Shown here: positions 2,026 through 51,827 of the stretch, in pieces
How positions within the stretch are numbered: position 1 is the stretch's first letter
Layout of the letters: every line of letters begins with the position of its first letter
Origin: Candidatus Staskawiczbacteria bacterium
Lineage (GTDB): Bacteria > Patescibacteriota > Minisyncoccia > Minisyncoccales > Staskawiczbacteraceae
Reading direction: 5' to 3'
Assembly (NCBI GenBank): GCA_026395175.1
Contig: JAPLZF010000009.1
Span: 82,083-146,082 of the forward strand
DNA: 64,000 nt
Notes under the pieces: model-generated
Seen by the model: only the letters and a program-made list of their open reading frames with translations
The model's database searches: none
What the model was told of the DNA's origin: nothing
Translations under genes and position numbers: made by a program

Positions 2026-4194
2026 TTAAATCTTTTCTGCCATTATTGGGTTAACTTGCTCGTCAACAATTTCTAAAGTTGCAGCTATTGTTTCCATTGG
2101 AAAAGCAAACTCTTTTCTTTGCTGGTATTCTTCTTGTTTACCTTTATGCCATTGTTGAACTGGCCTAATATAGCCCACAACCCTTGAATAAACTTCACAT
2201 GGCTGTTTTATGGTGCATTGCGGGCATTCAAAGTGTTCGCCGGAAATATAACCGTGCGTTGGACAAATTGAAAATGTCGGGGTTAAAGTAATATACGGCA
2301 GGCTGTAATTTTCAAATATTTTTTTGACTAAATTTTTTGCCTGGTTGGGGTCTGAAATATTTTCTCCCAAAAATATGTGCAAAACTGTTCCGCCGGTGTA
2401 TTTTGTCTGAATGTCATTTTGCAAATCCAAAGCTTGGAAAACGTCATCTGTAAATCCAACCGGCAACTGGCTTGAATTGGTGTAAAAAGGAACTTCTTTT
2501 GTGCCGGCTGTAATAATATCTGGGTATTTTTCTCTGTCGGTTTTTGCCTGCCTGTAGCTTGTGCCTTCTGCCGGAGTAGCTTCCAAATTATACAAGTTTC
2601 CTGTTTCTTCTTGAAATTTAATCATGGTATCTCTCATAAAATCCAAAATTTCAATTGCAAATTTTCTTCCCTTTGGAGTTGTAATGTCTTCTTCCAAAAA
2701 GTTAAGCAAAGATTCATTCATTCCGCAAATTCCAATTGTTGAAAAATGATTTCCAAAATAAGTATTTCTCATTTTTTTCATATCTTCCAAATAATGCCTT
2801 GAATACGGGTAAAGCCCTTTTTCCATAAAGTTGTCCAAAGCTTTTCTCTTAATTTCCAAGCTTTCTTTTGCCAATTCCATTAAATGAGCCAGCCTGGCAA
2901 AAAATTCTGTTTTTGTTTTTGATGTATATCCAATTCTCGGCAAGTTGATTGTTACCACTCCAATGCTTCCTGTTTTTGGCGAAGAACCAAACAACCCGCC
3001 TCCTCTTTTGTATAATTCCCTATTGTCCAGGCGCAACCTGCAACACATACTTCTTGCATCATCCGGGCTCATGTCTGAATTAACAAAGTTTGAAAAATAA
3101 TTGATTCCATATTTTGCCGTAGCCTCCCACATTGCTGTCAAATTCGGATTGTCCCATTCAAAATCTTTTCCAACAGAAACCGTCGGAATTGGAAAAGTAA
3201 ACGGCCTTCCCGATGCGTCGCCTTCCATTAAACCCTCGTAAAAAGCTTTTATAAACATATCCATTTCCGGCTGAAATTCCCCATAAGTTTCATTTTGCGC
3301 CTCGCCCCCAATAATTACCGGCTGTTTTGCCAAGTGCGAAGGCGGTTTAATGTCCAAAGAAACATTTATAAACGGAGTTTGGAAGCCAACTCTTGTAGGC
3401 ACCATGCAATTGTACAAAAATTCCTGCATCGACTGCTTTACCTGCTTGTAATTTAAATTATCATATCTGATAAACGGAGCCAGCAAAGTGTCAAAATTTG
3501 AAATGGCGTTTGCCCCTGCTGTTTCGCCCTGCAAAGTAAACAGCGCGTTTACCAATTGCCCCAGCGCAGTTCTAAAATGTTTTGGAGGCCTGCATTCTAT
3601 TTTTCCATAAACCCCGCCAAATCCTTTCACCAAAAAATCATACAAATCCCAACCGGCGCAATAAGGAGCCAGCAATTCCAAATTGTGAATGTGAAAATCT
3701 TCGTTGGCTGCAGCCTCGCGAATTTCTTTTGGATAAATTTTATTCAGCCAATATTTTTTTGAAATATACGAGCCGACATATTGGTTTAACCCCTGCAAAG
3801 AAAAAGTCATATTGGCATTTTCTTTTACCTGCCAATCAATTTCTTTTAAGTAGCTGTCAATTTTTTCTGAAGATTCGTCAACCGCTTGTGACGCTTCCCT
3901 AATTGTTCTTCTTTGCTCTCTGTATAAAATATATGCCTTGGCTGTTTCAACCAAATCTTCCAGCATCAGAGCCTCTTCAACAATATCCTGAATTTGCTCA
4001 ATTGTCGGAATTTCACTTTTTTTGAACCTGCGATTGAGCAAGCTCAAAACTTTTTCTGAAACTCTTTTTGAAACTTCCCCGTCTCCCTGGTTTGCGGCAA
4101 CAACAGCTTTGTGAACTGCTTCTTCAATTTTTTTTATTTCAAAATCAACGACTCTTCCGTCTCTCTTCCTAATTTTTTCTATATTATTTTCCAT
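2026..4194 (-). CDS. nrdD: Anaerobic ribonucleoside-triphosphate reductase (class III)
   Basis: N-terminal ATP cone, C-terminal glycyl-radical region RVVGY, and a Cys-rich zinc ribbon CPQC. Confidence 0.9.
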   Translation of the reverse strand: MENNIEKIRKRDGRVVDFEIKKIEEAVHKAVVAANQGDGEVSKRVSEKVLSLLNRRFKKSEIPTIEQIQDIVEEALMLEDLVETAKAYILYREQRRTIREASQAVDESSEKIDSYLKEIDWQVKENANMTFSLQGLNQYVGSYISKKYWLNKIYPKEIREAAANEDFHIHNLELLAPYCAGWDLYDFLVKGFGGVYGKIECRPPKHFRTALGQLVNALFTLQGETAGANAISNFDTLLAPFIRYDNLNYKQVKQSMQEFLYNCMVPTRVGFQTPFINVSLDIKPPSHLAKQPVIIGGEAQNETYGEFQPEMDMFIKAFYEGLMEGDASGRPFTFPIPTVSVGKDFEWDNPNLTAMWEATAKYGINYFSNFVNSDMSPDDARSMCCRLRLDNRELYKRGGGLFGSSPKTGSIGVVTINLPRIGYTSKTKTEFFARLAHLMELAKESLEIKRKALDNFMEKGLYPYSRHYLEDMKKMRNTYFGNHFSTIGICGMNESLLNFLEEDITTPKGRKFAIEILDFMRDTMIKFQEETGNLYNLEATPAEGTSYRQAKTDREKYPDIITAGTKEVPFYTNSSQLPVGFTDDVFQALDLQNDIQTKYTGGTVLHIFLGENISDPNQAKNLVKKIFENYSLPYITLTPTFSICPTHGYISGEHFECPQCTIKQPCEVYSRVVGYIRPVQQWHKGKQEEYQQRKEFAFPMETIAATLEIVDEQVNPIMAEKI

Positions 4195-4270
4195 ATACTA
4201 CATTTTACTCTAACTAAAAACCCTGTCAAATCCCGTTTTAAGCCTAAAATCTGTGGATAAACTAAAAACG

Positions 4271-5191
4271 TTAAAATTTTGTGGCTATTACGGTAATTTT
4301 TATTTCTCCCTTCTTAAGCGTGCTGTCTTTTACTGCGCCAAAGATTATTTGAGCCTTTGAATCAACATTTTTTGTAATAACGTTTGCCGCTTCCTGAATT
4401 TCATTTAAAGTAACATCATTTCCCGAAGCCGAAAACAAAACTCCTTTTGCCCCCTTAATTGAAAAATCAAGCAACGGCGAGCTGATTGCTTTTTCTGCCG
4501 CCAAAACCGCCCTGTTTTCTCCCATCATTTTTCCTGTGCCAAACAATGCGTGCCCGGAATCTTTCATAATAGACAAAACCGACGCAAAGTCTATGTTTAT
4601 AATTCCCGGCACCAAAATCAAATCGGTAATTGATTGCACAGCCTCGCGCAAAACATCGTCGCAAATTAAAAACGCGTTTGTAACCGTGGTTTTTTCATCA
4701 ACTATTTTCAAAAGCTTGTCATTTGAAATAACCAGCAAAGAATCAACTTTTCCTTTTAAATTTTCCAAAGCAACTTGCGCAACTTTTTTTCTTTCTTCAC
4801 CCTCAAAGAAAAAAGGAGTCGTAACAACAGCAACAGTTAAAATGCCAAGATTTTTTGAAATCTCGGCAATAATTGGCGCAGCTCCGCTTCCGGTGCCTCC
4901 GCCAAGCCCACAAGTGACGAAAACCATATCTGCCCCTCTTAAGTTTTCTAAAATTTCTTGTTTAGATTCTTCGGCTGATTTTCTGCCCAGGTCAGCGTCC
5001 ATTCCGGTTCCAAGACCTTTGGTAAGATTTTTTCCTATTAAAAATTTTTTGTCGGCTCGGCAGATGTGCAAAGCTTGCGCATCTGTATTTACCGCCAGCA
5101 ATTCAACCTCCTGCATTTCCAATTTAGCCATTCGTGAAACCGTGTTAGACCCCGACCCGCCAACTCCAATAACTTTAATTTTTGGATTCAT
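4271..5191 (-). CDS. ftsZ: Cell division GTPase FtsZ
   Basis: GGGTGSGAAP tubulin signature; sits downstream of ftsA. Confidence 0.9.
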   Translation of the reverse strand: MNPKIKVIGVGGSGSNTVSRMAKLEMQEVELLAVNTDAQALHICRADKKFLIGKNLTKGLGTGMDADLGRKSAEESKQEILENLRGADMVFVTCGLGGGTGSGAAPIIAEISKNLGILTVAVVTTPFFFEGEERKKVAQVALENLKGKVDSLLVISNDKLLKIVDEKTTVTNAFLICDDVLREAVQSITDLILVPGIINIDFASVLSIMKDSGHALFGTGKMMGENRAVLAAEKAISSPLLDFSIKGAKGVLFSASGNDVTLNEIQEAANVITKNVDSKAQIIFGAVKDSTLKKGEIKITVIATKF

Positions 5192-5206
5192 AAAAACTTT
5201 ATCCTT

Positions 5207-6427
5207 TTATGGGATGAAGTTTCTGATCCATTTTCTAAATCCAGAGCCCCATCCCTTGGTAAGTCCTAATATACCATCTTTTGAGCCAGAATCAACCCCT
5301 TCCAAAGCCAATCCCGCAACAGTTGCCAACGCCGGGTCTTCTTGAAGCCCTATAATGCCTTTCGGCCTGCCAATTTCGCAGGAAAGATTCAATGTTTCTC
5401 TCACAAGCTCTTTTATTTTTGGAATTTTAGCTCCACCGCCTGTCAAAACAACTCCTCCCGGCAACAACTCCTGCCTGTTAATTTTTTTCAACTCTTTTTG
5501 CACCAAGTCCAAAATTTCAGAAACTCTCGGCTCAATAATGTCCACCAAATTTTTCTTTGTGAAACTCAAAGAATCTGATTTGTCAAAAACTTCTATTCTC
5601 TTTTTCGACTGGTCCAATCCTTTTTCTGTTTTTGAAGACATGCAAGTTCCATGTTGTTTTTTAATTGATTCTGCAATTGCCACGTCTGTTTTCAGACCAA
5701 TAGCAATGTCGTTTGTAATGTTTGCCGAGCCAATTGGAAAAACAGCCAAGTGCATCAGCTCGCCTTCTTCAAAAACTGCCAAAGATGTTGTTGCAGCCCC
5801 AATATCAATTAAAGCCACTCCCAGTTCTTTTTGTTGCGGAGTCAAAACAGCGTTGGCTGCTGCTAAAGGCGAAGGAATTACATCATTTATCTGCAATTTT
5901 GCAGCCAAAACAGCTTGGGTAAGCTTTATAAAATAAGGAGAAAAAACGCACAACAGCAAAACTTTTGCTTCCAATCTTACGCCGGTAAGGTCTTCGGGCT
6001 GTTTTATCCCTTTCTGGTCGTCAATAATAAATTCTCTGGGAATAACGTCTAAAACTTCATCATTTCTGGAAATATTTATTGCTCTTGTCGCCTGCAAAAC
6101 CCTTTCAACATCTTCTTTTGAAATTCTTTGGTCTGCCCTAGAAACAGAAATTATTCCGTCGGAAGGAGTAACATACAAATGGTTTCCGCCAATATTCACA
6201 AAAACAGAATTGATTTTCCTGTTGCAGTCTTTTTCAATTCCCGAAATTATCATCTGCACATTTTTTGCCGTTTCTTCCACAGAAACCACAGCACCCTTTC
6301 TCAGCCCAAACGAAGGAATTTCCGCATACGACAAAACTTCCCAGTCGTTTCCATTTCTTTGAGCCACCAAAGCTTTTATGCTGTGCGTCCCAATATCTAA
6401 ACCTGTGACAATGTCGGCTTTCGCCAT
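5207..6427 (-). CDS. ftsA: Cell division protein FtsA
   Basis: Actin-like ATPase N-terminus LDIGTHSIKALVA; ftsA-ftsZ gene order. Confidence 0.85.
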   Translation of the reverse strand: MAKADIVTGLDIGTHSIKALVAQRNGNDWEVLSYAEIPSFGLRKGAVVSVEETAKNVQMIISGIEKDCNRKINSVFVNIGGNHLYVTPSDGIISVSRADQRISKEDVERVLQATRAINISRNDEVLDVIPREFIIDDQKGIKQPEDLTGVRLEAKVLLLCVFSPYFIKLTQAVLAAKLQINDVIPSPLAAANAVLTPQQKELGVALIDIGAATTSLAVFEEGELMHLAVFPIGSANITNDIAIGLKTDVAIAESIKKQHGTCMSSKTEKGLDQSKKRIEVFDKSDSLSFTKKNLVDIIEPRVSEILDLVQKELKKINRQELLPGGVVLTGGGAKIPKIKELVRETLNLSCEIGRPKGIIGLQEDPALATVAGLALEGVDSGSKDGILGLTKGWGSGFRKWIRNFIP

Positions 6428-6514
6428 AATGCTATTTTTTAATTTCTAATTTTGAATTTCGATTAAATTTTAAAATTCTAATTTCGAAATTCTGGTTTTA
6501 TTCGAAATTCGAAA
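6428..6514. repeat. Degenerate array of the GAAATTC/TTCGAAA heptamer repeat (family A) in the ftsA-ybeY intergenic region
   Basis: aatttctaattttgaatttcga ... ttcgaaattcgaaatt; it shares a roughly 25 nt core with the copy inside polX at 53899-53937. Confidence 0.6.
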
Positions 6515-6901
6515 TTAAAAATTCAAAATTTCTAAATACTTCTCTTCTTTCTCCTGCATTTTTATTTCTTCTGCTCTGCTTTTCTCGTGGTCATATCCGC
6601 ACAAGTGCAAAATGCCATGAACAAAAACTTCCATTATTTTTTCTTTCTTTTCTTTTACAACTTCCGGACAAATCACAATCTCGCCTAAATAATCTTTTTC
6701 GTTAAACAAAAAAGATAAAACGTCGGTAGGTTTATTTTTCCCGCGATATTTTTTATTAAGCTTTGCAATCTCGGCTTTTTCCACAAAAGCCAAAGATAGC
6801 GTTTCCGTTTCTCTATTTTCGCCTAATAAAACTTTTTTTGCAACCTGTGAAAAACTTTTCTTATCCACAGAAAACTTGGTGAGGTTATTTATCTCTATCA
6901 T
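6515..6901 (-). CDS. ybeY: rRNA maturation endoribonuclease YbeY
   Basis: HGILHLCGYDH metal-binding motif. Confidence 0.85.
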   Translation of the reverse strand: MIEINNLTKFSVDKKSFSQVAKKVLLGENRETETLSLAFVEKAEIAKLNKKYRGKNKPTDVLSFLFNEKDYLGEIVICPEVVKEKKEKIMEVFVHGILHLCGYDHEKSRAEEIKMQEKEEKYLEILNF

Positions 6902-6995
6902 TCTGTCAATTATACCAAATATTCCACAATAAACAAAACAATAAAAAAGCGCTCATTTCACTGAGCGCCATGGCAAACCGAAAAGTTCGGCTATT

Positions 6996-7829
6996 TTACC
7001 CTTGCAAAACTTCGGCCATTGTAAAGATGTCTTTTTCAACTTTGTGTCTGGCGAGAAACCGAATCGCCCGCAACACGCCGTCCACATAGACGTTTCTGCC
7101 CAACACATTGTATGTGAATTGCAGTTTCACGGTGCCGTCCGGAGACATCATTGTGTAGGTATGATACGCGTGGCCACCAATATATTTCTTTGGAACGCCA
7201 AGCTTCACTTCTTGGACCACAGGGTCTCGCACCATGTTGTCTGCAATCTGTTCTTTTGTGTACGGCATTCCAAGCGCCGCGAAGAATTCCAGCAGGCTCA
7301 CCGCCGTCCCACTGGGGTCTTTTTTCCCAGCCTGGTGGCTTTCTTCAATGAGCAACTGCCAGCCTTCAAGCACATTCGGAAAATTCTTGGCAGCGTATTC
7401 CAACATCGCCTGAAACATCACAACTGGCGAGGCCATATTTGGAGCAATAACAGCCGAGACACAGGACTTCTTAACCGTTTCCTCCAGCTTTTGTCTGTCT
7501 CCGCCGGTTGTCCCCATAACAAAGGGAACTCCCGCTTGGCAATACAGCTCGGCATTGCGGTTGACCGCTTTCGGTTGTGTGAAATCAACAACCATGTCAA
7601 TATCTTTACGACTCCGTAAGAAGTCTGTATGTTCATCGGTTGGAATCAAACGCACTGCTTCCGGCGACCTCTCATCTGCGATGAGCGTAACTCCTTTCTC
7701 TTCGGAAAGCGCATAAGGATACAACTCCATGTCTTCCTGAGACACAATGGCTTCCGCGACAAGCCTGGCCATTTTCCCCATTTCTTGTTGTGCTGACAAT
7801 CCTGCTACCATCGCCATAATCTTTTTCAT
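6996..7829 (-). CDS. dapB: Dihydrodipicolinate reductase (DapB)-like oxidoreductase, visibly GC-richer than its neighbours
   Basis: ESHQAGKKDPSGTA matches the DapB E-HH-K-D-PSGTA signature. Its own promoter TTGACA-16-TAGTAT lies about 100 nt upstream. Confidence 0.6.
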   Translation of the reverse strand: MKKIMAMVAGLSAQQEMGKMARLVAEAIVSQEDMELYPYALSEEKGVTLIADERSPEAVRLIPTDEHTDFLRSRKDIDMVVDFTQPKAVNRNAELYCQAGVPFVMGTTGGDRQKLEETVKKSCVSAVIAPNMASPVVMFQAMLEYAAKNFPNVLEGWQLLIEESHQAGKKDPSGTAVSLLEFFAALGMPYTKEQIADNMVRDPVVQEVKLGVPKKYIGGHAYHTYTMMSPDGTVKLQFTYNVLGRNVYVDGVLRAIRFLARHKVEKDIFTMAEVLQG

Positions 7830-8131
7830 GACTTTCCCTTTCTATGTTGGCTCATTGAGCCGTTGTGAACGAACAGAACGAAACAAAACTTAACTTATTT
7901 ATATACTAATACTAATTATCATTTTGTCAAACAAAAAACCTGCCTGCCGGCAGTTTCTCACTTTCAGGGGGTAAAACGGCCCCAGCCCCTCCTGGCGCTC
8001 CAGGCGTAGTTCCTTGTCCCGCCGAAGCCTTTGGCGAAGACTGGTCCTGCCAAAAAATTATTTCTCAATTAATCTTTATTAAAAGGCTCCTACCCCTTTT
8101 TACCCCCTTTTACTCGAATCCAAAAAAAATA

Positions 8132-8863
8132 CTAATAAGTTTGAGGACTTAAATTTTCAACTATATTTTCAGATTTTTCTTTATAATCTTGGGACTGCAA
8201 ATATTCTTCTAATGTTGTATCTTGCCATTTTAGGTAGTATGCTTCTTTATTCCAACTCTTGAACAGTTCTTTGAGATATTTTTTCATTTCAATAAAAGTG
8301 TTTTCAACTAATGACCCACTACCATCTGATACAGATAACATTGTTGCGAATGCCTGCGATAGCATCATAATATTAATTGATATTTGGTCAGATTTATTCA
8401 TAACTTTTCTAATTGTTTGATCGCAATGATAAAAACTTATTAATAAAGCAAATTTATTCTTTACAACCACGATTCGATTTGAATGGATCAATGAGTAAAA
8501 AATATCATTTGAAATATAGCAAAACCCATGGACATCCTGATGGGTTTCTCTCCAATCTTTTATTTTTTTTAAATTACTATTTATACAGAGTAAATTATTG
8601 AATAATTCAGTTATAAGAAGTTTTTCCAATTCATTGTTTATTTGTTTTTCCCTTTGGACGCTAACACAATAAATCCCAAAAGCAACAATAATTGCTATAA
8701 CGTTAACGAATACAGAAATAGTATCTGCTACAAAACTCCATTCAATTTGTGGCATAACAAATAATTTATTTTCTAAAAAATAATCTGATAATATAAACAA
8801 TCCTCCAAAACCCATAAAAATAAAATGGTACCAGTTTAATTTTTCGAGCAAGCCATAATCCAT
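8132..8863 (-). CDS. Hypothetical membrane protein (two N-terminal TM helices), last gene of the defence-island operon
   Basis: ORF plus hydrophobic segments; no recognisable motif. Confidence 0.5.
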   Translation of the reverse strand: MDYGLLEKLNWYHFIFMGFGGLFILSDYFLENKLFVMPQIEWSFVADTISVFVNVIAIIVAFGIYCVSVQREKQINNELEKLLITELFNNLLCINSNLKKIKDWRETHQDVHGFCYISNDIFYSLIHSNRIVVVKNKFALLISFYHCDQTIRKVMNKSDQISINIMMLSQAFATMLSVSDGSGSLVENTFIEMKKYLKELFKSWNKEAYYLKWQDTTLEEYLQSQDYKEKSENIVENLSPQTY

Positions 8864-8894
8864 AATAGAGGTAAATCCACTATTTTTTTATTTC

Positions 8895-9125
8895 TCAATC
8901 AATTTTTGTCAACATTTTAAATTTATTCTCTAAATAAAAATTCTTTGTTTTTAAATAAATCATCTGATAAAACGGTGCCATTTTAATATTTTCGGGGTTT
9001 ACGCAATCAACCATCACGGCTTGCGCTACTTTTAGTAATTCAAATTGAGTGCTTTTTTTATCTAAAATTTTATTTTTTTCGAAGCTAATAAATTTTAACT
9101 CTTTTTCAAAATTAAATTTTTTCAT
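8895..9125 (-). CDS. Hypothetical small protein (76 aa)
   Basis: ORF tightly packed between the REase candidate and the membrane protein. Confidence 0.4.
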   Translation of the reverse strand: MKKFNFEKELKFISFEKNKILDKKSTQFELLKVAQAVMVDCVNPENIKMAPFYQMIYLKTKNFYLENKFKMLTKID

Positions 9126-9129
9126 ATTT

Positions 9130-10191
9130 TTATTTAAATAAAACTTTAAAATTATTGGTGCTCGCCTCCTCTTTTAATAATTCTATGATTTCTTTCTGTG
9201 ATTTTGTCATATTACTTTCATCAAATTTTGATCCAATGGTAAGTTTCAAAGCTGAAATTGAGTTATATTTTTTATCTTTAAATTTCACATCTTCAAGGTT
9301 GGTGAATAAAATCATTTTTAACAAACCATCTTTGATATCCTCTATGGATGGTAATGTGCCATCTTTGCTATGTTTCCCCTCTACTAAAAATAATTTATCA
9401 TCCTTAATCTTCGCTTCATCAACAGTGAAAAAATAATATCCACCTAAATAATTTTTTATAGTAATTATTGCTTTTTCCCCAGATAAGTTTTCTTTTGGTT
9501 GTATGATTAAACGCTCTCGCCCTTGGGCTTTTTTTGCCAACATCCGAGATAATTCCATAAAATTATTTTTACCTTTTAAAAGTTCGTTTATTCTTTTTTC
9601 GGCAGTTTGACGTGAGTGCATTTCTATTTTTAATTTTTTAGAAATTCCAGCATAGGATTCCAATGCCTTTTTTCCGATTTGCCCAATTTTGTCGATATGA
9701 GCAAGATTCCAGTGTAGAGCATCTGATTGATAAGATAAAATATTTTCAAGCTGTGTTTTAATATAGTCAATATCGAAACGTTGATTTGTAATTTTTTGCT
9801 TATATCTTTTACTCTTTTCTGCTGTATTATAATAAGCGATGATTACATAAATTCCCAATAAACTCATCAGTGAAATTGTATCCCATTGTAAAAAATCTCT
9901 ATCGCCTTCCAGCCCCTCGTCTTTAAAAACAGGTATAACCGTAATTTTTTTCCCAGAAAACCCTAAAGTATCATAGACTCTCGCGTAAGGATAGGAACGG
10001 GTTCGTTTTGCTGAAACCCACCAGCTCATCGCAACTTGATTCTCTTTATCAATTTTTAAAATAAAAGAAGAAAAAGAGGACATTCCTTTTCGTAAATCTT
10101 TTAAATCTAAAATCTCTAACTTACGGCAAAGTAGTGGCTTATATTTTATTCCTTTAATTTTAGCTAATATATCCATATTTGTCTGCTTCAC
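9130..10191 (-). CDS. Candidate Type II restriction endonuclease with a C-terminal PD-(D/E)xK-like motif TVDE...LVEGK
   Basis: Overlaps the downstream end of the adjacent DNA MTase gene. The D...ExK spacing is consistent with the nuclease fold. Confidence 0.5.
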   Translation of the reverse strand: MKQTNMDILAKIKGIKYKPLLCRKLEILDLKDLRKGMSSFSSFILKIDKENQVAMSWWVSAKRTRSYPYARVYDTLGFSGKKITVIPVFKDEGLEGDRDFLQWDTISLMSLLGIYVIIAYYNTAEKSKRYKQKITNQRFDIDYIKTQLENILSYQSDALHWNLAHIDKIGQIGKKALESYAGISKKLKIEMHSRQTAEKRINELLKGKNNFMELSRMLAKKAQGRERLIIQPKENLSGEKAIITIKNYLGGYYFFTVDEAKIKDDKLFLVEGKHSKDGTLPSIEDIKDGLLKMILFTNLEDVKFKDKKYNSISALKLTIGSKFDESNMTKSQKEIIELLKEEASTNNFKVLFK

Positions 10192-11266
10192 GATAAATAA
10201 TTTCTAATTTGTCGTTTTGGTTAGCAAAAAAAGTTTTTTGTGCATCACCAAAACCCAATTTTGTTTTTATGGTTGAAACGAGTGACTTTTTTATTTCAAA
10301 ACCAATACTATTTCTTCCTAATTCGCGAGCTTTTTTCATCGTCGTACCGCTACCAGCGAAAGGATCTAACACTGTTTCGTTTTTGTAAGAAAAAAGTTTA
10401 ATCGCACGATAAGGTAATTCTTCGGGAAAAGCCGCAATATCTTTTTCCAATGATGAACCAGGCATTACATTGTTCATTTCCCAAAGAGTCATATACCATC
10501 TATTTTTTTGAATCTCTTTCGTGTCCACTTTTGATTTTTCTCGGACATCTTTAGATATTGAACGATAATCAAATCTACCTTTTTGAAAAATTACTATACT
10601 TTCCAATAAATTGTCAGGATAAAAATACATAGGATAAGGATTCTGTAAAATAACTCCACTCCGACGACTAATTCTTAAATAACCATCGGGTTTCTTCCAG
10701 ACGATTTTATCTCTATATCTAAAACCTGCTTGTTGAAAAATTTTAACCGCGTCAGCGGCGATAGGATATTTCTCGCCATCAATCAACATATCATCAATAT
10801 TCAAAACGGCGATTCTCCCATCTTGTAAGACTCTATATGTTTCTTCGGCAAAACTTTTCAGCACTCCTAGATATTGTTCATAACTCTTAAATAAGCCCTT
10901 ATAATCAAAGGGAGCATTAAAATAAGGCGGCGAGGTTATCATTAGGTGAACACTACCATCTGGTATTTCTGCCATACTCATACAGTTGCCTACTATTAAT
11001 TTGTGGTTTGTTGCGGTAACATCGGGTTGTGTATGTTTTTTGGTTTCAACTAGTTCTTCCAAAACCGCATCTTTCACTCCTTGATTTTTAGATAGTTTGC
11101 TTTTAATTATTTCTTTCTGGATTTCATATAAAGCTTTTTTTGATTTTTTCCTTGGCCATTTTTTGGCTATAATTCCGTGTTTTGTTTTGCTAAGACTAAC
11201 AACCCCACGAAGTTTTTCTTTTGCCAATCTTAAAGCTTTTTTATTTTTAACTTTTACTTTTGCCAT
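10160..11266 (-). CDS. DNA methyltransferase, beta-class N6-adenine/N4-cytosine (motif IV SPPY before motif I DPFAGSGTT)
   Basis: The SPPY and FxGxG motifs occur in the order typical of PF01555-type MTases. Confidence 0.8.
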   Translation of the reverse strand: MAKVKVKNKKALRLAKEKLRGVVSLSKTKHGIIAKKWPRKKSKKALYEIQKEIIKSKLSKNQGVKDAVLEELVETKKHTQPDVTATNHKLIVGNCMSMAEIPDGSVHLMITSPPYFNAPFDYKGLFKSYEQYLGVLKSFAEETYRVLQDGRIAVLNIDDMLIDGEKYPIAADAVKIFQQAGFRYRDKIVWKKPDGYLRISRRSGVILQNPYPMYFYPDNLLESIVIFQKGRFDYRSISKDVREKSKVDTKEIQKNRWYMTLWEMNNVMPGSSLEKDIAAFPEELPYRAIKLFSYKNETVLDPFAGSGTTMKKARELGRNSIGFEIKKSLVSTIKTKLGFGDAQKTFFANQNDKLEIIYREADKYGYIS

Positions 11267-11269
11267 ATT

Positions 11270-11941
11270 TTATATTAATTTATTTTCCGAAAAACTAAAT
11301 GGTTTTTTACCCTTAGCTATTATAACATGATCTAGAACATCTACCCCCATAATTTTGCCGGCTCCAATAATTCTTTTTGTAATTTCTAAATCGTCTTCTG
11401 ACGGCTCGTTATCCCCCGACGGATGGTTGTGGGCTAAAATTACAGAGCAGGCATTTTGTTTTAGCGCTTCCTGAAAAATTTCTCGCGGATGTATTAAGCT
11501 TGCATTTAACGTGCCAATAAACATTGGTTTTTTATGTAAAAGTTCGTTTCTTGCATTAAGAAAAAGCGCCATCAAATGCTCTCTTGTTTTGTCTCGCATA
11601 TAAACAACTTGAGCCAAAACATCTTCAACTGAATTAATTTTTGGCAGACTTTCATCCCTAACATCCAAAGCTCTTTTTACCAATTCTTGGCTTGCCAAAA
11701 TTATACAGGCTTTAGCCGAGTTTATTCCTTTTATTTTTGTTAAATCTTCGTATTTTAATTGTAAAAAATTTTTAATAGGATATTTTGCCAAAATCTGTTC
11801 TGCAACTTCAATTACATTTTTACCTTCCACGCCCGTGCCAAGCAAAATTGCCAAAAGCTCTTTATCTTTCAAATTTTCTTCGCCTTTCGCAATCAACTTC
11901 TCTCTTGGTCTTTCAATTTTCGGCAAATCTTTTATCTTCAT
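11270..11941 (-). CDS. radC: RadC-like JAB/MPN domain protein
   Basis: HNHPSG JAMM motif plus an N-terminal HhH region. Confidence 0.8.
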   Translation of the reverse strand: MKIKDLPKIERPREKLIAKGEENLKDKELLAILLGTGVEGKNVIEVAEQILAKYPIKNFLQLKYEDLTKIKGINSAKACIILASQELVKRALDVRDESLPKINSVEDVLAQVVYMRDKTREHLMALFLNARNELLHKKPMFIGTLNASLIHPREIFQEALKQNACSVILAHNHPSGDNEPSEDDLEITKRIIGAGKIMGVDVLDHVIIAKGKKPFSFSENKLI

Positions 11942-11970: not shown

Positions 11971-12261
11971 TTACTTTCTATTAAAGTTTTTACCAACAAT
12001 TTTTTGCAGAATTTCTAAGGTGGCCTGCACAGAAGGATTTTCTGTATTTTCCAAGGTTAATCTATCCCCATAAGTGTTTAACAGAGGAGTTAAAAATTCA
12101 TCTCCCCAAGAAGGAGAAAAAGTTAACACGCCGTAAAAATCAATTTCAATACTTTCGGTTTCTTTCACGTCTCTTAAGAGTGATTGCAATGCAGAAAAAG
12201 CTTCCCTACCCGTTTGTCGGGAGATAAGTGTTGTGCCAAATTTTTTTAATTCTATTTTCAT
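11971..12261 (-). CDS. STAS-like (DUF4325-type) small protein, putative partner of the upstream GHKL kinase
   Basis: ISRQTGREAF ... IDFYGVLTFSPSWGDEF matches the DUF4325/STAS-like pattern; 4-nt gap to the kinase gene. Confidence 0.55.
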   Translation of the reverse strand: MKIELKKFGTTLISRQTGREAFSALQSLLRDVKETESIEIDFYGVLTFSPSWGDEFLTPLLNTYGDRLTLENTENPSVQATLEILQKIVGKNFNRK

Positions 12262-12265
12262 AATT

Positions 12266-12994
12266 TTAATAAGTTATTAAGGCAAGACATCCACGGACAG
12301 TTTCTGATGCATCTTCACTAACAATATCCGCGCTATTGCCTTTTAATAATAATTTTGCGTCGCCCGATTGGAATATCAAACTAATTGGATTCTTTGAAAT
12401 AACGCTTTTAACATATTTTAATCCATTACCTCTTGATTCGGGTTTCCTACCGGAGATTATCTCGGTAAATGCAGTTTGCAATGCATGAGCATGGTCTTTT
12501 AATTCTGGTTTTACTTTTCTTAATGTTTCTAAAATTCCCACTCCTCTGTCCGCCAATACAATCTGTTTTTTATTCAAATCATACGCAAAGAAAATTCCGG
12601 GAATATCTGGCCACTGACCAAGATTATGGTCATATGAATTATTTCCTATCTCTCCGGCAATAGATGTCAATAAAGAGAACAATGGTTTTGCATCTTTATT
12701 TTCAATCATCAGCGTTTCCATCTTTGTTATGCGAGCTTGAAAAACTCCGCTGTTTTGGCAATAAAATTGCTCGGGTATTTCTTTTTCTAAAACTGCCCAG
12801 TCTTTAGCAAGCTGGAATAAATCATTTAAGAAAACATCAATATCTTCTTTGCGATAATAACGATGACCGCCCGGTTTATCTCTAACTGAAAGCAAACGAC
12901 CGCTTTCATCCCAGCGACGCAATGTCATAATTGTAACTCCCAGCAATTCGGCTGCTTCACCTATTGTTATTAAATTTTTGTCTTTTTCTTCCAT
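12266..12994 (-). CDS. MerR-type HTH fused to a GHKL (HATPase_c, RsbW/anti-sigma-like) ATPase/kinase domain
   Basis: HTH ITIGEAAELLGVTIMTLRRWDESG; N-box EIGNNSYDH; G1 DRGVGI; G2 GRKPESRGNGLKYV. Start chosen at MEEKDK, downstream of a TATAAT; the ORF-track start at 13063 is probably too long. Confidence 0.65.
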   Translation of the reverse strand: MEEKDKNLITIGEAAELLGVTIMTLRRWDESGRLLSVRDKPGGHRYYRKEDIDVFLNDLFQLAKDWAVLEKEIPEQFYCQNSGVFQARITKMETLMIENKDAKPLFSLLTSIAGEIGNNSYDHNLGQWPDIPGIFFAYDLNKKQIVLADRGVGILETLRKVKPELKDHAHALQTAFTEIISGRKPESRGNGLKYVKSVISKNPISLIFQSGDAKLLLKGNSADIVSEDASETVRGCLALITY

Positions 12995-13093
12995 AGTTTT
13001 AATCTTTATTTGTATTATATCATAGTTTTTAAACCTATACAAGGTGCCAATAAACCTATACATTTACCCTAATTTTCAGCCAAACAAAAACCG

Positions 13094-16496: not shown

Positions 16497-16564
16497 AAAT
16501 TTGTTTTATTTTATCACACTTTTTAGGCAATTACAACCCCTTTATAAATAGTCCAAATATAGAA

Positions 16565-16598
16565 AAAAAGTCGGGCTCCAGCATGTGCTAGAGCCCCT
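16565..16598 (-). terminator. Intrinsic terminator (GGGCTC-loop-GAGCCC then a T-run on the minus strand)
   Basis: Hairpin plus TTTTTTT seen in the minus-sense sequence. Confidence 0.5.
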
Positions 16599-16627
16599 CA
16601 AACTTGAAACAGGTACAACAAATGCAA

Positions 16628-16897
16628 CTACCGCCGCAAGCGCAGGGACTGCTTCCTGCACTTGGGCTTATGATGCCCATTGCCATTGCCGTTTTTGCCG
16701 TTGCCGGGGGATTGATCCCTAAAAACCTGCAGGAGCAACTTCCGCATTCCCTTCCGTCCGATGTGTTCCCCGCCATAGCGAGCGTTGAAGATTCTCGCCA
16801 GTTTTGCGATGGCGTCAGAATGCGCATTCGGGGGAACTTGAAATTTCCGTAGAAACCGTACTTGGTCCTCTGGCAACTGCATTGTCGCGTTAAGCAT
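16628..16897 (-). CDS. Hypothetical small basic protein in a GC-rich island (MLNATMQLPEDQVRFLRKF...); gene model uncertain
   Basis: This frame stops about 30 nt before the terminator. The alternative overlapping frame 16588-16968 is Cys-rich and stops inside the terminator hairpin. Confidence 0.3.
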   Translation of the reverse strand: MLNATMQLPEDQVRFLRKFQVPPNAHSDAIAKLARIFNARYGGEHIGRKGMRKLLLQVFRDQSPGNGKNGNGNGHHKPKCRKQSLRLRR

Positions 16898-17061
16898 ACT
16901 CTTTTCCCTCTTCGTTTTTGTTGTGTTTTCCCTGTTTCTACAAACAAAATTGGAAATGAGCTGACCATTCAACCGCCTTTCTCTCGGTTCTTGAATGGGT
17001 TGTTGACAACTAATATCATAGCTCTTTCATAAATTGATGTCAAATGCTATAATTACAAAAT

Positions 17062-25025: not shown

Positions 25026-25109
25026 GCCGAGGTGGTGAAATTGGCAAACACGCCGGACTCAAAATCCGGTGCCCTTAAAAGCTTGAGGGTTCAAGTCCCT
25101 CCCTCGGCA
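25026..25109 (+). tRNA. tRNA-Leu (anticodon CAA), long variable arm, CCA not encoded
   Basis: Acceptor stem GCCGAGG/CCTCGGC, anticodon loop CTCAAAA, T arm GAGGGTTCAAGTCCCTC. Confidence 0.8.
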
Positions 25110-25137
25110 CACTTCACTTTGTTCAGTGTGAACAACT

Positions 25138-51034: not shown

Positions 51035-51481
51035 ATGAAGATATTCAGTGAAAACAAAAAGGCGGGGTTTAACTATGAAATCCTAGAGAAGTTTGAAGCC
51101 GGGATGGTTTTGTTTGGCCAGGAAGTTAAATCAATAAAAACCGGGCACATCAATTTGTCCGGGTCTTATGTTGTTTTTAACAGGTCAGAGCCCTATTTAA
51201 CCGGCGTAAAAGTGCCTCCATACCAGCCAAACAACATTGGAGCCGACTATAATGAAGAAAGGCAAAGAAAACTTCTTTTAAACAAAAAAGAGATAGATTA
51301 TTTGGCGGGCAAGACCAAAACCAAGGGTTTTAGCTTAATACCCTTGAAAATTTATGAGAACAATGGTAGAATAAAACTCGAATTCGGGTTAGCCCGCGGA
51401 AAGAAGAAATTCGACAAAAAGGAGAAAATTAAAAAACGGGATGTCGACCGAGAGGTTAATCGCGAATTATCACGGGGATGA
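51035..51481 (+). CDS. smpB: SsrA-binding protein
   Basis: GFNYEILEKFEAGMVL..EVKS SmpB signature. Confidence 0.85.
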   Translation: MKIFSENKKAGFNYEILEKFEAGMVLFGQEVKSIKTGHINLSGSYVVFNRSEPYLTGVKVPPYQPNNIGADYNEERQRKLLLNKKEIDYLAGKTKTKGFSLIPLKIYENNGRIKLEFGLARGKKKFDKKEKIKKRDVDREVNRELSRG

Positions 51482-51827
51482 TTGTTTCGATGACTAGTTC
51501 TTTAAAACAAGGCAAGTTAAGCTTTCTCAGGGCTTATAAATCTTCTGGGAAAAAACATAATTGCTACTAATTTATTTAATAGACAACCAGCATTAGCTTT
51601 CGCTTAATGCGGCATCTCAACCATTGACTCCTAATAAATGGACCTGAGGTGTTATATTATTAGGATAGGAATTCTGAGTCCTTGGCAGATTTCCAAAATA
51701 AAAAGGATAAGATGTTAAAAATTTTGCTATTTCTTTATTTGACATCCTAAAAAACAGAACTAGCTAAACTTGTAGAATTGCTTTAGAAAACTTTTCAGAC
51801 GCGATTTCAACATCGCCATCTCCACCA
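51474..51827 (+). ncRNA. ssrA: tmRNA (SsrA); its 5' GGGGATG pairs with 3' CATCTCC-A-CCA; predicted tag ATNLFNRQPALAFA
   Basis: tRNA-like 3' end GACGCGATTTCAACATCGCCATCTCCACCA and 5' GGGGATGATTGTTTCGATGAC resemble E. coli tmRNA; the candidate tag reading frame ends in TAA; sits downstream of smpB. Confidence 0.75.

Follow-up and report, generated by a model that had tools for sequence, protein, structure and literature searches.

In a 64,000-nucleotide stretch of a Candidatus Staskawiczbacteria genome (assembly GCA_026395175.1, contig JAPLZF010000009.1, positions 82,083 to 146,082 of the forward strand; hereafter the window), we identified a self-contained cassette of about 1.1 kb, in which a gene for a helix-turn-helix (HTH) domain fused to a GHKL domain is directly followed by a gene for a small STAS protein of the DUF4325 family. 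We favour, at slightly better than even chances, the reading that it is an autoregulated kinase/STAS phospho-switch which works by anti-sigma-type partner switching and is a distant relative of CapK/CapS and VapK/VapS. Both genes lie on the minus strand, as do all features of the locus described below. The fusion gene (242 amino acids, aa) occupies positions 12266-12994, with its ATG at 12994, and the partner gene (96 aa) occupies positions 11971-12261, beginning 4 nt after the fusion stop codon, in agreement with a preliminary description of the locus. A 265-aa reading of the fusion open reading frame (ORF) from position 13063 was rejected, because it would take in the promoter and homologues measure 240-242 aa. 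A protein identical to the partner (100%) is encoded in a Candidatus Staskawiczbacteria metagenome-assembled genome (MAG).

The N-terminal part of the fusion protein (about aa 8-67, positions 12794-12973) is an HTH domain of the MerR/excisionase/BldC type. It matches Pfam MerR (PF00376) at 48.8 bits (cut-off 28.2), with further matches to MerR_1 (PF13411, 40.8 bits) and HTH_17 (38.1 bits), and it matches the NCBIfam excisionase domain at 36.5 bits (cut-off 28.8). Its top PDB sequence match is a Listeria MerR-like regulator (3qao), with BldC next; against the NCBIfam BldC model itself the HTH scores 36, far under the cut-off of 77. The C-terminal part (about aa 82-242, positions 12269-12751) is a compact GHKL domain, which in the AlphaFold 2 (AF2) model of the fusion protein (predicted local distance difference test score, pLDDT, 83.8) adopts the Bergerat fold, and anti-sigma Ser kinases make up its four best fold matches. 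Just two helices (aa 82-122) separate the HTH from the first GHKL strands in this model. Specifically, we recognised an N box (aa 115-124, positions 12623-12652), a G1 box with the sequence DRGVG (aa 149-153, positions 12536-12550) and a G2 box with the sequence RGNGLK (aa 188-193, positions 12416-12433), and we found E115 and N119 (in GEIGNNSYDHN), D149-R-G-x-G153 and R188-G-N-G-L-K to be invariant in 27 sequences. The HMM match, the fold and the invariant boxes bear out the preliminary description, which had proposed a MerR-type HTH fused to a GHKL domain. In addition, two cysteines, C79 (positions 12758-12760, in FYCQNS) and C236 (positions 12287-12289, in RGCLAL), are invariant in the HTH-type family. 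The secondary structure of the model places C79 in a short N-terminal strand and C236 in the last strand, and the two could form a redox pair.

The partner passes the Pfam threshold for DUF4325 (PF14213; 25.6 vs 23 bits) and has a STAS fold, which agrees with its earlier description as a STAS-like, DUF4325-type protein. It consists of a single STAS domain, with neither a winged HTH (wHTH) nor a tail. Its best small-protein fold matches are substrates of anti-sigma kinases, and the resemblance to RsbW/RsbV that had been pointed out for the pair thus holds for both folds. The candidate phospho-acceptors are S49 and S51, which flank P50, where helix alpha-2 of the model starts. S51 is near-invariant, being replaced by Ala in one of about 40 aligned members.

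The two genes are strictly paired across a wide range of Patescibacteria. By pattern search and tblastn, with one genome taken per species, we found at least 556 species-level genomes that encode a relative of the fusion protein, nearly all of them Patescibacteria. A hidden Markov model (HMM) of the kinase domain, searched against 1.84 billion proteins, returned 400 representatives at 50% identity, and the kinase family is thus small and tight. Neighbourhoods were counted in the best 80 of these at least 556 relatives (81 loci in some counts) with 20-kb flanks. These best 80 relatives share 52-74% identity and belong to the Staskawicz-, Nealson-, Yanofsky-, Moran-, Portnoy-, Berkel-, Doudna-, Peri-, Uhr- and Andersenbacteria and to further Patescibacteria lineages; three of their contigs bear labels from outside the candidate phyla radiation (CPR). 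A DUF4325 gene directly follows on the same strand in all 80 loci that could be evaluated by tblastn; in one further locus the contig ends at the kinase gene. Picking ORFs had suggested that DUF4325 was absent from 12 loci, which we rejected, since antisense ORFs had displaced the gene and tblastn recovers it. Relatives of about 190-200 aa that have no HTH occur in Patescibacteria and Treponema MAGs and keep an overlapping DUF4325 gene; it adjoins the kinase gene in four of them, one from Treponema, in contexts that include def-fmt-rpsP, ruvABC and polysaccharide synthesis genes. Because the HTH-less relatives keep DUF4325, the conserved core is the kinase plus the STAS protein, and the HTH fusion represents one branch.

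Upstream of the fusion gene we observed two exact copies of TGTATAGGTTT, a distal one at positions 13052-13062 and, 21 bp from it, a proximal one at positions 13031-13041, which belong to a family of direct repeats phased at 21 bp. The proximal repeat overlaps a -35-like TTGTAT (positions 13037-13042), and a perfect -10 hexamer, TATAAT (positions 13014-13019), is read from the sequence 17 nt beyond it. A scan for consensus promoters left this promoter unlisted, as its -35 matches at only 3 out of 6 positions; the -10-like element recurs in the same position across homologous loci. Likewise, most of the 77 loci with a readable upstream region carry two to four direct repeats of TG(T/C)ATAG(R)TTT before the gene. 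The density of TG[CT]ATAG is 10.4 per kb in the 170 nt upstream of the gene and 0.049 per kb in the remaining 2.1 Mb on both strands, a 215-fold difference. Repeats are spaced by 21 bp in 50 pairs and by 20 bp in 15 pairs, that is, by about two helical turns, and because of the 21-bp spacing they lie on one face of the DNA. Within the window, TGTATAGGTTT has no exact copy beyond the two at the promoter, and matches with one mismatch occur at chance level (4 found vs 6.8 expected).

The sequence of these repeats covaries with that of the HTH. We compared base 3 of the repeat with the residue X of the motif VSI-X-TLRRW, which stands at the start of the recognition helix. TGCATAG accompanies Asp in 42 out of 44 loci, and TGTATAG accompanies Met in 17 out of 17 and Gln in 4 out of 4; with Asn, Ser or Thr, TGAGTAG or TGGGTAG is found in 5 out of 6 loci, the exception being one of the three Thr loci, which has TGTATAG. 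Overall, residue X predicts the repeat in 68 out of 72 loci, a value reached in none of 10,000 permutations (the best reached 52). In addition, the wing sequence xGYRLY pairs with TAGGGT in 7 out of 7 loci. Nine loci (L012, L013, L014, L015, L019, L023, L026, L068 and L076) carry a different HTH (EFYTTKELAELLGVSR...; EFYTTKELAELLGVSRVAVFNRIKKGDIKAQKMGRNF...) on the same kinase domain, and in all eight promoters of this kind that could be read, the repeats are replaced by the palindrome GTTAACATATGTTAAC between -35 and -10. These eight promoters also carry AAGTTAACAA downstream, and one locus, L025, has both kinds of operator. The HTH-less relatives have no such repeats upstream. Since the operator is swapped wholesale together with the HTH, and since the HTH-less relatives provide a negative control, the fused HTH very likely binds its own promoter and autoregulates the cassette, as judged from sequence comparison.

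We then asked where else the operator occurs. When all metagenome contigs were scanned for exact matches to the pair TGTATAGATTT-N10-TGTATAGATTT, 90 stretches were found, and 83 sites were read in 80 of them. A kinase gene lies behind 61 of these 83 sites, or 61 out of about 73 when contig ends and a tandem repeat are set aside, which makes the operator all but exclusive to the cassette. The other sites comprise seven at contig ends, three in an unrelated AT-rich tandem repeat, one before an NYN-like gene and two in high-GC, non-CPR contigs; the rest are unclear or have no same-strand ORF just downstream. Two non-CPR contigs with a GC content of 54-58% (L089:2100-2132 and L116:3436-3468) carry the same pair with its 21-bp phasing, AATGTATAGATTTGGAnTnCAAATGTATAGATTT, in a conserved intergenic context, with no kinase gene within 1.5 kb downstream of it.

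We infer the following mechanism; its input signal, the phosphorylation, the direction in which it regulates and any read-through are putative. The 242-aa protein would act as a BldC/excisionase-type MerR HTH joined directly to an RsbW/SpoIIAB-like GHKL kinase domain, with the HTH binding the two to four direct repeats spaced at 21 bp. A dimer of the kinase domain, as in SpoIIAB, may present two HTHs to successive repeats at -35, and HTH occupancy there would set the expression of the cassette itself. The GHKL domain, whose binding and catalytic motifs are invariant, would bind ATP and the STAS protein and would probably phosphorylate a Ser of the latter at the start of helix alpha-2, S51 or S49. 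STAS binding or phosphorylation would in turn alter promoter occupancy, and this change could, via read-through, alter downstream expression, in this locus that of a RadC gene and a type II restriction-modification (R-M) system. With no linked phosphatase, the switch might be reset by turnover, or the partner might act unphosphorylated. RsbW responds to the ATP/ADP ratio, and the same ratio is one candidate input, alongside nucleic acid, as for CapK, and redox via C79 and C236.

Several observations weigh against this reading. No third gene is conserved beside the pair and no PP2C phosphatase is linked to it, as judged by all-vs-all clustering, Pfam and PADLOC, and the absence of a linked phosphatase leaves reversibility unexplained. 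The acceptor Ser is ambiguous between S49 and S51, and S49 is replaced by G, T, A or L in some relatives, distant partners included. The weak -35 (3 out of 6) makes activation instead of repression possible, and the counts behind the covariation (68 out of 72 loci) are not phylogenetically independent. No target besides the cassette's own promoter was found in the window, in 1.06 Mb of flanks or in the metagenome contigs. In addition, no HATPase_c family in Pfam or NCBIfam, HATPase_c_2 included, matches the C-terminal 160 residues at E ≤0.1, so that of the domain assignments made in the preliminary description, profile searches recovered MerR and DUF4325 and did not recover HATPase_c. A family profile of the kinase domain against PDB sequences likewise gave only chance matches (haemoglobin). 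The GHKL assignment thus rests on fold and motifs, because sequence HMMs fail on the kinase domain; CapK and VapK are likewise invisible to Pfam HATPase_c-type models. When compared directly with these proteins by hhalign, the kinase aligned with CapK through the N and G1 boxes (E 4.3e-4) and with a profile of 25 VapK sequences through the N, G1 and G2 boxes (E 1.8e-4), a similarity that is marginal at an hhalign probability of 34-48% (48% for VapK).

The closest described systems are CapKS and VapKSC. CapK is an HTH-STAS-GHKL kinase whose activator is single-stranded DNA (ssDNA), for which its STAS domain forms a groove, and CapS is a STAS-wHTH repressor, whose phosphorylation at S54 by CapK breaks the dimer and lifts repression from the immune operons next to it (Chambers et al., EMBO J 2026, PMC13373217). 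The cassette resembles CapKS in its N-terminal HTH on an anti-sigma-like GHKL kinase, in the gene next to it, which encodes a STAS protein as the probable substrate, and in its very likely autoregulation. However, only CapK has an internal STAS domain (the N-box Asn is residue 218 in CapK and 119 in the cassette kinase), and the DNA-binding domain is carried by CapS as a wHTH, whereas the DNA binding that we infer from covariation sits on the cassette's kinase. Moreover, CapS binds palindromes and CapKS is found upstream of immune operons in 348 out of 443 cases (PMC13373217), whereas the cassette has direct repeats and no recurrent neighbour. VapK, a STAS-GHKL kinase, phosphorylates S48 of VapS, which is made up of a STAS domain plus a short tail; VapC is a PIN toxin, and VapKSC protects against phage Bas42 (PMC13373217). 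VapS is itself a DUF4325 member (62.7 bits for the published sequence vs 25.6 for the cassette partner), and in both systems the STAS gene comes immediately after the kinase gene. The partner aligns with VapS by hhalign (E 7.6e-5), with S48 of VapS falling on P50, within one residue of S49 and S51. However, VapK has no HTH, the C-terminal tail by which VapS inhibits VapC is missing from the cassette partner, and no PIN toxin gene of the VapKSC type recurs beside the cassette in 81 loci. One VapC clade has been described as "transcriptionally coupled to DUF4325" (PMC5499597), which fits the kinase-STAS picture. Since it has no internal STAS, wHTH, tail, toxin gene or consistent immune neighbour, the cassette is neither CapKS nor VapKSC.

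Other likenesses are more limited. In contrast to SpoIIAB/SpoIIAA and RsbW/RsbV, the cassette has no sigma-factor target or linked PP2C gene among its neighbours, and its output domain is joined covalently to the kinase. BldC stands alone as a protein of about 70 aa, whereas the cassette HTH is fused to a kinase domain. MerR regulators bind a palindrome in a spacer of 19-20 bp and carry a C-terminal effector domain after a coiled coil, whereas the cassette has direct repeats at and upstream of -35, a 17-nt spacer and a GHKL fold. Type II toxin-antitoxin (TA) systems such as HipBA are similar in their compact pair of overlapping or near-abutting genes, their operator at their own promoter and their variable locations, and differ in that the cassette's DNA-binding domain is on the enzyme and not on the small partner, and in the cassette's very high conservation across lineages. 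The cassette is best filed as a distinct architectural variant in the anti-sigma-kinase/STAS class. What is new here are the direct repeats at the promoter and their covariation with HTH residues.

Given the CapK/CapS precedent, the cassette might instead be a controller of the adjacent operon that responds to a stress signal such as ssDNA, with RadC and the R-M system as its targets in this locus. The genes in question follow closely. A RadC (JAB) gene lies 29 nt downstream of the pair (positions 11270-11941; Pfam PF04002, 142.9 bits), followed by an N6_N4 type II methyltransferase gene (positions 10160-11266; PADLOC MTase_II, 6.4e-72) and a type II restriction enzyme gene (positions 9130-10191; PADLOC PDLC03572, E 2.9e-101), which overlap by 32 nt (positions 10160-10191). 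Two genes with no family match come next, orf76 (positions 8895-9125) and orf243 (positions 8132-8863), the latter membrane-protein-like by appearance. The cargo from 8132 to 11266 is peculiar to this locus and low in GC (0.23-0.33 vs 0.365 for the window). The first terminator-like hairpin outside any ORF downstream of the cassette is at positions 7940-7953, and a scan of the window found no intrinsic terminator outside ORFs between it and the cassette; read-through from the cassette promoter into RadC and the R-M genes is plausible. Nucleotide comparison with close relatives is consistent with the cassette being a unit. Homology to the relative whose protein is 95% identical runs from 13065 to 11968 (88% identity) and homology to the one at 90% runs from 13082 to 11945 (83.5% identity), in other words from the operator to the DUF4325 stop codon. 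One close relative also shares RadC (82.8%), and the rest within 10 kb on either side is unrelated. In the 95%-identical relative (L178, positions 2778-11211), the cassette is followed by DUF7695, RadC, Phd/ParE, a 574-aa methyltransferase, a DEAD/ResIII helicase, a PD-(D/E)XK protein and Fic, a cargo different from the window's in the same place after RadC. The cassette and RadC thus border a variable island in this lineage.

Across the family, the downstream gene is co-directional in 57 out of 78 loci and, in 30 of these 57, no more than 60 nt away, and a terminator-like hairpin follows DUF4325 in only 22 out of 79 loci, both of which speak for control of adjacent genes. However, the downstream gene is convergent in the other 21 out of 78 loci, and the closely coupled genes have no common theme: they include YchF, NUDIX, HAD, RadC, PIF1, small membrane proteins and a likely superoxide reductase (read from sequence only). 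An immune operon lies directly downstream in the window and in L178, and the downstream genes of the 78 loci are heterogeneous. Furthermore, the kinase has no counterpart of the STAS domain that forms the ssDNA groove of CapK, and no second operator precedes the downstream genes in the window. On balance, we regard a CapKS-like control of the adjacent operon as unlikely. In one locus, L049, the kinase gene is present twice (L049:6030 and L049:10958), at a distance of about 4.9 kb and with near-identical upstream regions, which looks like a segmental duplication.

A further possibility is that the pair is an anti-phage or TA-like module, in which the kinase is an effector or toxin, the STAS protein its antagonist and the HTH serves autoregulation only, as in type II TA systems. 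In keeping with this, the cassette behaves as a unit, with nucleotide homology of 83-88% confined to the promoter and two genes between unrelated flanks, its operator is private and diversifies in specificity, and the related VapKSC is protective. The preliminary description had placed the pair in a defence island, in a context typical of anti-phage modules. The RadC and R-M neighbours are real, and the island holds for the window and L178; it does not hold in general, as RadC is linked in 5 out of 81 loci, a methyltransferase in 2 and a restriction enzyme in 1. Since RadC is linked in so few loci, it does not belong to the conserved module. Apart from the pair itself, no gene cluster is found in more than 6 out of 81 loci. 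A scan with Pfam and PADLOC of 282 neighbouring proteins at positions ±1 and ±2 (141 per side) gave at most 4 proteins per side for any one family, and Sigma70, SpoIIE and PIN were not among the recurrent neighbour families of the loci scanned. The neighbours are mostly housekeeping genes (MurJ, MreB, DnaK, YchF, RNA polymerase, PPDK and others), with scattered R-M, AbiE, Fic, NYN and PIF1/RecD-like genes. A minority of loci do adjoin R-M, AbiE, Fic, Phd/ParE or PIF1/RecD-like genes. As most homologous pairs lie outside islands, the typical anti-phage context suggested earlier is not a property of the family.

The distribution of the pair argues in the same direction. Among 2.9 million viral contigs we found one match, and 50,697 phage records gave none; plasmid matches were confined to a relative of 30% identity, which four alphaproteobacterial plasmids carry. 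The one on an Aminobacter plasmid lies beside STAS-like, DUF499 and DUF1156 genes, which would suit a defence role. Identity across class-level lineages is unusually high (52-95%), and the neighbour scans found no effector, PIN/VapC gene or conserved third gene. PADLOC has no match to the kinase core or to DUF4325, in line with the earlier remark that the pair could not be recognised as any defence system with a name. A PADLOC-DB v2 match to mad1 (E 5.4e-15) hinted at the MADS defence system, a lead that we rejected because the match is at the level of the HTH: of the MADS proteins, mad2 is a methyltransferase and mad1 a small HTH regulator of a generic kind (10.1101/2023.03.30.534895). The fusion protein also has a weak match of this kind to the PADLOC MTase_II model (E 2e-4, aa 25-63). 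Taken together, a defence or TA function appears improbable, the defence reading is not supported as a family property, and the cassette itself is probably not an anti-phage weapon.

The HTH could also serve a dispersed regulon, with weaker or single operator copies before unlinked genes beyond the 20-kb flanks. Patescibacteria have few transcription factors, which would suit such a role. The 1.06 Mb of flanks hold two extra repeat pairs, before an orphan DUF4325 gene in L009 and before an AAA_14/DUF4143-type gene in L058 (typed by eye), and in L099 an exact pair precedes an NYN/LabA-like gene (typed by eye). However, among the 83 exact-pair sites, apart from the 61 that precede a kinase gene, just one has a clear gene just downstream, and the window has neither another exact copy nor an excess of copies with one mismatch. 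We therefore consider a dispersed regulon quite unlikely. Finally, it is quite unlikely that the GHKL domain is an ATP-binding or ATPase sensor and not a protein kinase, with the STAS protein as an unphosphorylated ligand or nucleotide-binding cofactor: the missing phosphatase gene and the ambiguous acceptor Ser would suit such a sensor, whereas the best fold matches of both proteins are anti-sigma kinases and their substrates, and both experimentally studied relatives with STAS partners, CapK and VapK, are kinases.

Returning to the autoregulated kinase/STAS switch, we tentatively propose, at clearly less than even chances, that it represents an undescribed class of transcription factor, in which an anti-sigma-type Ser kinase is fused to an HTH on 21-bp-phased repeats, is switched by a STAS protein and follows a recognition code, and which may explain the HTH of CapK, whose deletion gives no phenotype (PMC13373217). 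If this is true, partner switching would act directly on DNA binding and not via a sigma factor, in a 1.1-kb cassette with a readable and diversifying code. At position 3 of the repeat, the proposed code would be Met for T, Asp for C and Asn or Ser for R, with a wing residue pairing with the 3' half. Whether or not it does, the cassette widens the class of kinase-STAS pairs known from CapK and VapK beyond immune loci and known architectures, and it suggests a testable role for N-terminal HTHs on such kinases, namely binding of the kinase's own promoter. In Patescibacteria, genomes are very small, few regulators can be recognised and genetics is almost absent, and a two-gene cassette with a readable operator and a predictable specificity code in hundreds of species thus offers a rare testable handle on their gene regulation. 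For annotation, R-M neighbours alone do not make such a pair a defence system.

We made several further observations on relatives of the cassette. The second, orphan DUF4325 gene of L009 (L009:16065-16403) has its own repeat promoter and no kinase gene. In L009, L081, L082 and other Staskawiczbacteria, the pair lies amid paralogous Cys-rich proteins of 577-587 aa with a faint match to zf_Tbcl_2; L081 has annotated TrwB/TraG-like ATPases, and L009 has a gene of similar kind, typed by eye. AAA_14/DUF4143 ATPase genes recur near the pair (L185:3893-5059, L183:3091-4215 and L058:5111-6235), lying directly downstream of it in L185 and 3 kb upstream of it in the Treponema locus. The L058 gene, typed by eye, stands behind a second copy of the repeat pair. 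The 30%-identical relative of the kinase domain on the Aminobacter sp. plasmid pMET2 (L187; NZ_CP114192.1, positions 80543-90917) is a 274-aa hypothetical protein in a co-directional run with genes for a 189-aa STAS-like domain-containing protein, DUF4417, DUF499 and DUF1156, a run that we take to resemble a candidate DNA-modification or defence cluster. Matches with the same score occur on two other Aminobacter plasmids and one Skermanella plasmid.

Elsewhere in the window, a DapB-like gene (positions 6996-7829) has a GC content of 0.49, well above the window mean of 0.365 and also higher than that of its neighbours. Between the genes for signal peptidase and peptidyl-tRNA hydrolase (positions 16500-17060) the sequence contains nothing but oddly composed ORFs that overlap in two frames (126 and 114 aa, minus strand), with no Rfam match at the gathering threshold. 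The window's only RNA genes at that threshold are a tmRNA (positions 51474-51827; Rfam, 95.8 bits) and tRNA-Leu(CAA) (positions 25026-25110).

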